From Escherichia phage S127 BCL3, in the sequence record OQ626344: DNA of 64,000 nt, one strand, 5' to 3'. Each line of letters begins with the position of its first letter. Within the stretch, counting starts at the first letter, position 1. The notes under the pieces were generated by a model. It did not search any database. It saw only the letters and a list, made by a program, of their open reading frames with translations, and was not told the DNA's origin. Of the stretch, positions 5,176 through 6,082 are shown piece after piece. A program made the translations under genes and the position numbers.

Positions 5176-5469
5176 GCCATGCCATTCGTTTGCATGAAAA
5201 CAATTAACAAGCTAACAATTAACAAGTTAATAATCTTTCGCTGGCTATGCCAGGTGACTAGGTCACCCCTTCGGGCGTTTCTATGACATAATATAAAAGC
5301 AGGGCAACTATTAGAAGATCTATAGTTGCCTTGCTTGTTATGTCATGATTAACTAAATACAAGGCAACTATGATCTGAGTAATAGATTGCAGAAAAACTA
5401 TCACGGGGGTGATGGTTACTGCTTTTATATTATGTCGCGACTCCGTCGCGCCATGCCATTCGTTTGCAT
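5176..5469. repeat. composite element: 20-bp direct repeats flanking 18-bp inverted repeats
   Basis: GCCATGCCATTCGTTTGCAT at 5176 and 5450; GACATAATATAAAAGCAG at 5285 inverted at 5419; internal GGCAACTAT/ATAGTTGCC dyads. Confidence 0.7.
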
Positions 5470-6082
5470 AGTTGCCTTATTGTTACAGGTAAAACAATTA
5501 CATTATTAATTATTTCTTATCTTTCTCTTAGTCATCTAATGATTCCAGTCAGTATAGTAATGTACAGTAAACATTAGACGACTAAAGATTTCTCTGTTTA
5601 TGATAACTCATCGTGATAATTTCGGACTGTTTACGAAAAATGTTGACACCTGAGCTGATTTATGTTATGCAGTTTACACGAATAATTATTTTATGCAGGT
5701 ATTGACTATTCCGTTATTCTGTGGTTGGAATAAATACTTTGCAGACTATAGAATGGCGTTCGTACGTGAATTCTGAGATCTGTCGGCTATAGTTATACTC
5801 GATTTTTCGCGTAGAACACGCTTTCGATGCTGTGTAAGTGTATGACTTATAAAGATTTTTAGTTGTTGACAAGATATTGGAGATATGCATCAGGTTAAAA
5901 TTTGTGCAATAGCTGCATTACGTGCACTTTTGGGAGAGAAAACGGGTAAAAATGGACTTGCTACCACACAATGAAAAATTATGCAATAGTTATTTTCCAT
6001 GTATATTTGTACAGTATGTGGGATTGATAGCTAGTCAATTATTCCACTTGCCAGGTAGGGCCGTTTATGGTAGGAGAAGAGC

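Follow-up and report, generated by a model that had tools for sequence, protein, structure and literature searches.

The 64,000-nucleotide stretch of Escherichia phage S127 BCL3 DNA analysed here (OQ626344; hereafter the window) holds, at positions 5176-5476, a compact element built of 20-bp direct repeats, an 18-bp inverted repeat and nested dyads. The element is conserved almost without exception across Vequintavirus and has counterparts of the same architecture, at the same position, in phages of other genera; this shared architecture and position is the firm result of the analysis. As to the nature of the element, we favour an accessory non-coding RNA gene of ~130 nt on the window (+) strand, a proposal whose chances of being right or wrong we regard as evenly balanced.

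The source DNA is that of a Vequintavirus, an rV5-like E. coli myophage, and 119 phage records match the window at 80-99% identity. The element is housed in a gap of ~2.5 kb free of open reading frames (ORFs; window ~3573-6131), with a (+) strand gene block to its left and a (-) strand block to its right. Because a terminal repeat homologous to that of phage LL12 maps to 4578-5036, the predicted start of the element is ~140 bp in from the left end of virion DNA; it spans 140-440 bp from the right boundary of the predicted repeat, the boundary itself lying outside the element. The sole basis of this placement in the window is one PhageTerm statement for LL12, and other Vequintavirus papers describe circular permutation or headful packaging. 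Identity among the relatives drops from 99% to 45% exactly at the right boundary (5036). In phage phi92, a terminal repeat of 343 bp has been annotated at the corresponding position, and genomes of the subfamily Stephanstirmvirinae are described as terminating in direct repeats.

All of the repeats described in the sequence-only reading of this DNA were recovered. The 20-mer GCCATGCCATTCGTTTGCAT occurs in two exact copies (5176-5195 and 5450-5469) and has no third match in the window at up to three mismatches; two matches were obtained in none of 100 shuffles. The left arm of the inverted repeat, GACATAATATAAAAGCAG (5285-5302), pairs perfectly with 5419-5436 across a 116-nt spacer and has only 2 matches in the 64 kb at up to three mismatches versus 0.05 expected. 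The dyads are formed by the 9-mer GGCAACTAT, which occurs four times in alternating orientation (5303+, 5322-, 5363+ and 5468-); the whole window contains five copies versus 0.58 expected. The palindromes GGTGAC-TAG-GTCACC (5254-5268) and ATCAC-GGGG-GTGAT (5400-5413) are both present, and when the region was folded as RNA and as DNA, segment 5280-5490 surpassed shuffled sequences on either strand (z = -8.5, -9.3 and -8.7). The features of the locus are listed below in window coordinates, with P1 to P5 denoting helices and R1 the covariance model described further on.

4578-5036, no strand: predicted direct terminal repeat of 459 bp (physical genome end), placed by BLAST homology to phage LL12
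5037-5175, (+): hypervariable arrays of ~10-nt TGACAYAAT-like units followed by 15-nt units nCTGTTTACGCnnnn
5176-5195, (+): direct repeat DR1, exact in most relatives, with a C7A variant in the FV3 clade
5199-5234, (+): AT-rich tandem repeat of the 15-nt unit AACAATTAACAAGYT, 2.4 copies here and ~0-5 in relatives
5236-5279, (+): 44-nt hairpin cassette composed of CTGGC-TAT-GCCAG, GGTGAC-TAG-GTCACC and CCCTTCGGG
5284-5292, (+): candidate extended -10 element TGaCATAAT, with a predicted start near 5299
5285-5302, (+): left arm of the inverted repeat, 5' strand of closing helix P1, invariant in 19 relatives and aligned to P1 by R1
5297-5336, (+): hairpin A (P2), the GGCAACTAT / ATAGTTGCC dyad with a variable loop, aligned to P2 by R1
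5337-5387, (+): linker with the third GGCAACTAT copy (5363-5371), site of most substitutions and of a 33-nt insertion
5388-5422, (+): terminator-type hairpin P3, a GCAG...CUGC clamp around AACUAUCAC-GGGG-GUGAUGGUU
5419-5436, (+): right arm of the inverted repeat, 3' strand of P1, consisting of the CUGC clamp and the U-run UUUUAUAUU (5423-5431)
5436-5450, (+): GC hairpin P5, CGCGAC-TCC-GTCGCG (-7.8 kcal/mol), invariant, aligned by R1 to the covarying P5 of phAPEC8 and phi92
5450-5469, (+): direct repeat DR2, which closes the unit
5468-5476, (-): fourth GGCAACTAT copy, which can pair with 5360-5372 on transcriptional read-through

Of 118 Vequintavirus genomes, ~117 have the inverted repeat, the dyads and the two 20-bp direct repeats in identical form. 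Across the core (5285-5451), 19 relatives differ at only 16 sites, and the repeat arms and stems are invariant, as is T5284 just outside the inverted repeat. The variable sites fall on 7 of 126 paired versus 9 of 41 unpaired positions (Fisher p = 0.004, for a fold derived from the window sequence itself). In hairpin A, loop positions 5313-5315 vary and the stem never does; the 33-nt insertion into the linker is found in three relatives. Every small ORF over the element is broken among the relatives by 1-nt indels and by the 33- and 44-nt insertions, and the small ORFs called there by the NHEP1 annotators were therefore rejected. An invertible segment was likewise rejected, given that the core has a single orientation in all relatives.

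Outside Vequintavirus, the gene context is retained: Phapecoctavirus and Septuagintavirus-like phages encode, with ~86-90% identity, the 139-amino-acid protein that lies to the right of the gap. A BLAST comparison of the Vequintavirus core with the syntenic gaps of phAPEC8, A7_1 and LTH01 produced no alignable homology, and the layout shared across genera emerged from repeat analysis only. In A7_1, LTH01, W70 and UPEC06, a pair of 18-nt direct repeats, CCNCCATACTCTGGCAAT, lies ~420-430 bp apart and encloses an inverted repeat of 16-21 bp (GACACTATAAAACGAG / CTCGTTTTATAGTGTC). As in the window, the order in A7_1-type loci is inverted repeat, GC hairpin and then the proximal direct repeat, and where P1 differs between Vequintavirus and A7_1, a change in one arm is mirrored in the other. 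Any one genome has near-identical direct repeats, which differ from genus to genus, and this concerted evolution argues that they matter as a pair.

The second set of counterparts, from Stephanstirmvirinae (phAPEC8, phiWec186, phi92, PD06, SD2 and the two Klebsiella phages phi1_175008 and KP2025), is unannotated and was defined in this analysis. Its members carry 15-16-bp arms (GCTAATAATAANNCA / TGNNTTATTATTAGC) in which changes of the inner GC clamp are fully compensated (AAGCCA, AACGCA, ACCGCA, AACACA). Like the window element, they lie between the terminal repeat and the first leftward genes, in the same orientation; in phAPEC8, the element is also downstream of the 139-amino-acid gene, which is 90% identical. 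In phi92, the counterpart is found ~250-400 bp from the terminal-repeat boundary, the left arm starting 252 bp after the terminal repeat versus 249 bp in the window. Common to both are an AT-rich closing helix of 15-18 bp (A-rich in its 5' arm, U-rich in its 3' arm and bearing an inner GC clamp), an inner GCAAC..AT/AT..GUUGC helix, an AUC(AC)/GAU-type hairpin and a trailing GC hairpin. The P3-like hairpins of phAPEC8 (AACCAUC-ACC-GAUGGUU) and A7_1 (GGUUAUC-ACC-GAUGACC) differ by paired changes. Unlike these shared traits, the primary sequences cannot be aligned by BLAST, ~91 nt of the window core remain unaligned to P3 of the model, and clear flanking direct repeats (20 bp in the window) are confined to Vequintavirinae. 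In the Klebsiella phage phi1_175008 (our locus L271; 523-636 and 777-800), the 5' arm of P1, GCTAATAAT, is directly repeated twice more upstream and TGCTAAT recurs downstream, a pattern that parallels the GACAYAAT repeats of the window.

Given the exact conservation in relatives and the same layout with different sequence in other genera, the features of the element are not a chance cluster.

The consensus fold was derived from an alignment of the seven Stephanstirmvirinae sequences and comprises P1, formed by the arms of the inverted repeat, P2, P3, which bears a hairpin at its tip, and the trailing P5. It contains 53 pairs, with 97.8% of cells paired and 12 pairs changed on both sides; these values were reached in none of 500 shuffles, and slid controls were 23-53% paired. 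The apparent palindrome CTTGCAAT-N-ATTGCAAG does not stand alone: its variable centre covaries with an upstream segment, the two together constituting the long-range P2, and this covariation argues against a duplex protein-binding palindrome. The two strands are not equivalent. In the window-(+) sense, the seven sequences contain 35 G·U cells versus 1 in the other sense, and 363 of 371 pairs are canonical versus 329. Folding energies of the (+) and (-) strands are -67.6 and -61.1 kcal/mol for the window, -68.7 and -54.8 for phAPEC8, -38.5 and -35.7 for A7_1, and -44.8 and -44.4 for LTH01.

The same asymmetry is visible in both window hairpins, in which a (+) sense wobble would become an A·C mismatch on the (-) strand. 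Hairpin A reaches -23.9 kcal/mol as (+) RNA, with a G5302·U5331 wobble, and -19.9 kcal/mol on the (-) strand with the mismatch; the P3 hairpin (-16.6 kcal/mol) has its U5399·G5414 wobble in the (+) sense only. The compensatory pairs and the G·U bias thus point to a strand-specific single-strand fold in the (+) sense, most likely of RNA, with single-stranded DNA of the same strand as the alternative. The long RNA hairpin originally suggested for this region is supported in a more elaborate form, the inverted repeat appearing as the closing helix of a multi-helix fold that is marked by compensatory changes in the sister phages and strand-specific G·U pairs.

R1, a covariance model built from Stephanstirmvirinae sequences only, was run on the whole window with filters off. 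Its best match in the 64 kb, of modest strength, is 5285-5455 (+) (24.5 bits, E = 4.4e-5; the runner-up scores 12.8 bits), and in the alignment P1 falls on the 18-bp repeat, P2 on the GGCAACTAT hairpin (GCAAC.AU / AU.GUUGC) and P5 on the GC hairpin. Other Vequintavirus loci score 24-29 bits; with default filters, the window match is missed. Common ancestry of the Vequintavirus and Stephanstirmvirinae elements is, by this model, likely but unproven. A search with all 4227 Rfam families yielded no match at the gathering threshold in the window or in the phAPEC8, phi92 and A7_1 loci, the best sub-threshold hits (E of at least 1.1) being to microRNA models, and no tRNA or tmRNA genes were found.

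Among the 119 matching records, only FV3 (deposited twice) joins the flanks through a single copy of the direct repeat and lacks the 274-bp unit. The remaining copy carries C7A, the DR1 mark of its clade, and SYGMH1, which belongs to the same species, has the full unit. Since the variant is of the DR1 type and the clade, including SYGMH1, is element-bearing, the most plausible reading of FV3 is that recombination between the direct repeats deleted the unit, and not that it represents an empty site. Because FV3 is a viable isolate, the 274-bp unit is dispensable for a viable phage, that is, accessory and not essential. Each of the 119 records matches at one place, always the same locus, and none of 5,426 complete E. 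coli genomes contains the single-copy unit. The only match in the plasmid collection PLSDB, CP057073.1 (137,565 bp; core identity 97.9%), is filed as a non-mobilizable E. coli plasmid, equals Vequintavirus genomes in size and is probably a Vequintavirus genome assembled from a culture. Similarly, 18 UNVERIFIED GenBank records of the MG0656xx series labelled 'Campylobacter phage' (L018 below is one of them) are ordinary Vequintavirus genomes, probably coliphage contaminants of Campylobacter phage preparations.

As an RNA gene, the element would be organized as follows. The 18-bp inverted repeat would provide the closing helix P1 and the GGCAACTAT dyad the inner hairpin P2; ATCAC-GGGG-GTGAT would form the tip of a terminator-type P3 and CGCGAC-TCC-GTCGCG the trailing P5. 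Transcription would start near 5299, from the extended -10 element TGaCATAAT in the left arm, and would end in the U-run of the right arm near 5430, after the P3 hairpin, the CUGC clamp and UUUUAUAUU. The resulting RNA of ~130 nt (~5299-5430) would begin with a hairpin, continue with a variable, largely single-stranded middle and close with a terminator at its 3' end. The unit is bracketed by the two 20-bp direct repeats, between which recombination removed it in FV3. Conservation, the fold, covariation among the sister phages, the strand bias, the place beside the predicted terminus and dispensability are demonstrated by the analysis; we infer transcription, the exact RNA ends and any target or function of the RNA. 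Relatives that lack the 44-nt cassette carry a -35-like hexamer 16 nt upstream of TGaCATAAT (score 10-11). The corresponding position in phAPEC8 is occupied by a perfect TATAAT, and it is only at this TATAAT that the inverted repeat of phAPEC8 is mismatched. At the other end, the GC-containing hairpin 5388-5422 (-16.6 kcal/mol) is directly followed on the (+) strand by the U-run UUUUAUAUU, as in an intrinsic terminator.

Several observations weigh against such an RNA gene. Little weight can be put on the left-arm promoter, since -10-like hexamers are common wherever DNA is AT-rich; in this window the cassette sits at the -35 position, and phi92 has no -10 element at the equivalent place. A start at 5299 would leave only 4 of the 18 bp of the repeat paired in the RNA and the symmetry of the outer arms unexplained; the latter could result from mirror use of the other strand, from transcripts starting further upstream or from the arms acting as DNA. 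The GACAYAAT of the left arm recurs, in the manner of a protein site, in the array by the terminal repeat. P1 is all Watson-Crick, with zero G·U pairs, in every lineage, which fits a DNA-level or two-strand constraint. On the wrong strand of its own training sequences, R1 scores 23-38 bits, not below its Vequintavirus scores, and it does not detect the locus of Septuagintavirus A7_1. Within Vequintavirus, the stems are invariant and display no compensatory change, and the fold used in the stem/loop comparison was that of the window itself. Finally, literature searches turned up no paper on the element, no origin, transcriptome or RNA description for the region and no transcript data for rV5-like phages.

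The main rival, which we consider possible, if on the unlikely side, is a cis element acting at the level of DNA, whereby the inverted repeat, the direct repeats and the arrays would function in double- or single-stranded DNA beside the terminal repeat. They might serve as sites for the small terminase or another end-binding protein, as a hairpin aiding terminal-repeat duplication when concatemers are processed, as proposed for T7, or as a terminus-proximal replication origin. Arrays of short repeats also adjoin the terminal repeat of T7, and transcription pauses at its concatemer junction, a pause required for maturation. In favour of a role in the biology of the genome end are the distance of the element from the predicted terminal-repeat boundary, closely matched by the counterpart in phi92, and the repeat arrays, which begin exactly at that boundary in both phages. 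Also in its favour, 4 of the 10 window copies of GACAYAAT lie within 400 bp, the P1 arm of phi1_175008 is repeated upstream, P1 is perfectly Watson-Crick in all lineages and the direct repeats evolve in concert, as paired sites would. A hairpin intermediate in the duplication of the T7 terminal repeat, cited in PMC4281155, offers a precedent. Against this rival, the viability of FV3 without the whole unit argues against any essential role, and the inner helices, with their G·U disparity between the strands and the covarying long-range P2, fit a single-strand fold and not duplex sites. The terminal repeat on which the argument hinges is itself placed by the single LL12 statement, set against the reports of circular permutation or headful packaging. 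Moreover, a cruciform with a 116-nt spacer would extrude poorly from duplex DNA. The 'origin-like structure' proposed in the sequence-only reading has observations on both sides: iteron-like arrays, AT-rich tandem repeats and the predicted terminal repeat adjoin the element, whereas FV3 is viable without the element and keeps the arrays while lacking the DR-to-DR unit. The GC-skew turn follows the direction of transcription, and no initiator is known. A reading that joins RNA and genome end seems to us rather improbable. Here, a terminus-proximal structured RNA would couple transcription, or an RNA scaffold, to the terminase or to terminal-repeat duplication, as a distant functional analogue of the phi29 pRNA or of the T7 junction pause, and the direct repeats would be sites for a partner protein. 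A related version would be a mirror-symmetric locus in which each arm serves one strand as promoter and the opposite strand as terminator, so that two RNAs of ~130 nt, complementary over their full length, would arise.

It is unlikely, though less so than such a coupling, that the element amounts to convergent intrinsic terminators acting as an insulator, with no functional RNA product. Hairpin A and its U-run would stop leftward transcription from the gene-164 block, 5388-5422 and its U-run would stop rightward transcription, and the pair would keep convergent early transcription off the genome end. Both hairpins do carry the same U-rich tail on their own strand (-19.9 and -16.6 kcal/mol); on the (-) strand, hairpin A followed by UUUUAUAUU reads as an intrinsic terminator and was marked as such by the annotators of phage Murica. 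Terminators would also be dispensable, consistent with FV3. Bidirectional terminators between genes 163 and 164 were expected by Kropinski et al. (2013), who found none and drew the gap as a "non-coding" box; the sole promoter or terminator that they list for it is a terminator just behind gene 164. This corresponds to window 6094-6113, so that gene 164 already has a terminator of its own. Furthermore, termination does not require tails identical over 18 nt, a 9-mer present four times, an additional GC hairpin behind the unit or flanking direct repeats, and the covarying three-way-junction fold of the sister family far exceeds its needs. A third idea of the sequence-only reading, the footprint of a small mobile element, here spelled out as terminal inverted repeats with a 20-bp target-site duplication, fared worst, and we hold it to be very improbable. 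Its appeal is that the direct repeats lie outside the inverted repeats, as in footprints of miniature inverted-repeat transposable elements with target-site duplications, that FV3 resembles an empty site with one repeat copy and that small hairpin cassettes do move within the region. However, the inverted and direct repeats do not abut, the distance being 89 nt at the left end (13-154 nt among relatives) and 13 nt at the right, and copies at multiple loci are not found: each phage record has one copy at the one fixed locus, and the E. coli genomes have none. No transposase is present, the same layout with co-evolving repeats is kept across genera, and the DR1-type repeat of FV3, in a clade otherwise element-bearing, fits a deletion. 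Taken together, these comparisons leave the accessory RNA gene as our preferred reading of the element.

Much of the variation at the locus resides in its left part. Conservation of the gap is 90-100%, level with the neighbouring genes, except at two indel hot spots (4520-4559 and 5040-5280). The arrays, which hold 3 copies of nCTGTTTACGCnnnn in the window and 3-12 in relatives, bring the length between conserved anchors to 168-281 nt among 20 relatives. Each unit of the adjoining tandem repeat AACAATTAACAAGYT holds a -35-like TTAACA, and the 44-nt cassette that follows is found in about half of the relatives. In one IMG/VR relative (L003; 1164-1207), an identical copy of this cassette is inverted and located ~2 kb away, exactly at the CCTGAAGAG copy of 3276; in L006, a cassette follows DR1, and L009, L016 and L018 carry the 33-nt insertion after window position 5337. 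With the 44- and 33-nt cassettes present, absent or relocated, in one case inverted 2 kb away, short structured modules are shuffled within the non-coding region among close relatives.

Other identities were considered for the repeats. The direct repeat was rejected as a general phage promoter, as only two copies exist in the window and the promoters of Kropinski et al. are of the plain sigma-70 consensus. By eye, the TGTTTAC units were compared with the T4 MotA box, LexA (CTGT-N8-ACAG), PhoP (11-nt period) and DnaA boxes, none of which is consistent across copies. Only a few units of the L003 TGTTTAC array resemble TTATCCACA, and a few read TTATCCACG, which is DnaA-box-like. Iterons of the P4 type, TGTTCACC, bear a general resemblance. 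Two-repeat CRISPR-like and retron-like arrangements were rejected, the spacer being 254 nt; rV5-like phages are not known to carry a Cas gene or reverse transcriptase. A metagenome scan with GGCAACTAT-N6-16-ATAGTTGCC was too unspecific, returning 120 mostly chance hairpins and only two extra relatives (L116 and L128), and an IMG/VR scan with a 15-mer of the phAPEC8 arm gave chance matches only.

Elsewhere in the gap, the second indel hot spot (4520-4577; 35% identity, 50% gaps) abuts the start of the predicted terminal repeat (4578) on the left and contains a tandem of ACNGGAGTGCTGCC at 4530 and 4563. At 3713-4000 (+), a near-consensus sigma-70 promoter, TTGACA-16-TGaTAAAAT (11/12), is not followed by an ORF. 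The ~260 nt behind it are 96-100% identical in 20 relatives, above the flanking genes; they have no Rfam match and do not fold beyond shuffles (z = -1.2), and the promoter may yield a second non-coding transcript, near the right genome end. The motif CCTGAAGAG is present in five (+) strand copies within 1.2 kb (3276, 3936, 4350, 4385 and 4467) and in only two elsewhere in the 64 kb, against 0.63 expected.

Coliphages of the rV5, phAPEC8 and phi92 types rank with those recovered most frequently for use in therapy and biocontrol. Their ORF-free "non-coding" region of 1.5-2.5 kb, a grey box since 2013, now holds a predicted genome terminus and, just inside it, a conserved, strand-specific, covarying fold that spans two subfamilies and has no Rfam entry. 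If the element is an RNA, it would represent a new phage non-coding RNA family at the genome end, with a natural knockout in FV3 to be compared with the conspecific SYGMH1. If it acts as DNA, it would mark cis elements of terminal-repeat formation in a group for which the packaging mode is inconsistently reported. For annotators, the implication is that ORFs should not be called in the region, and for phage engineers, that 274 bp are removable.

Among known systems, the element is comparable in outline to small RNA genes of phages and bacteria, which combine a sigma-70 promoter, a 5' hairpin, a single-stranded seed and an intrinsic terminator. Like them, it has a candidate extended -10 element, a 5' hairpin, a linker of ~50 nt with most of the variation, a 3' hairpin followed by a U-run, a length of ~130 nt, the lack of an ORF and dispensability. 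Unlike typical genes of this kind, its promoter and terminator tail are perfect reverse complements of each other, and it is bracketed by co-evolving direct repeats beside a genome terminus. The phi29 pRNA is a structured RNA of ~120-170 nt encoded by the left genome end, in which the paired 5' and 3' ends close a three-way junction with two hairpins. The likeness of the element to this RNA extends to topology and near-end position only; no loop-loop complementarity was found in the element, nor any sequence or Rfam similarity to pRNA. Furthermore, pRNA, which is essential for packaging, pairs between molecules through its loops and binds the portal, comes from podophages with protein-primed replication and no small terminase, whereas the element is dispensable in FV3, which disfavours its membership in the pRNA family. 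The concatemer-junction region of T7 (described in part in PMC4281155) is comparable in having a short terminal repeat flanked by short-repeat arrays, with an inverted repeat and a termination signal near the junction. It differs in that T7 belongs to an unrelated phage group, whereas here the polymerase is that of the host, the element is dispensable in FV3 and the fold, with its G·U pairs, is specific to one strand.

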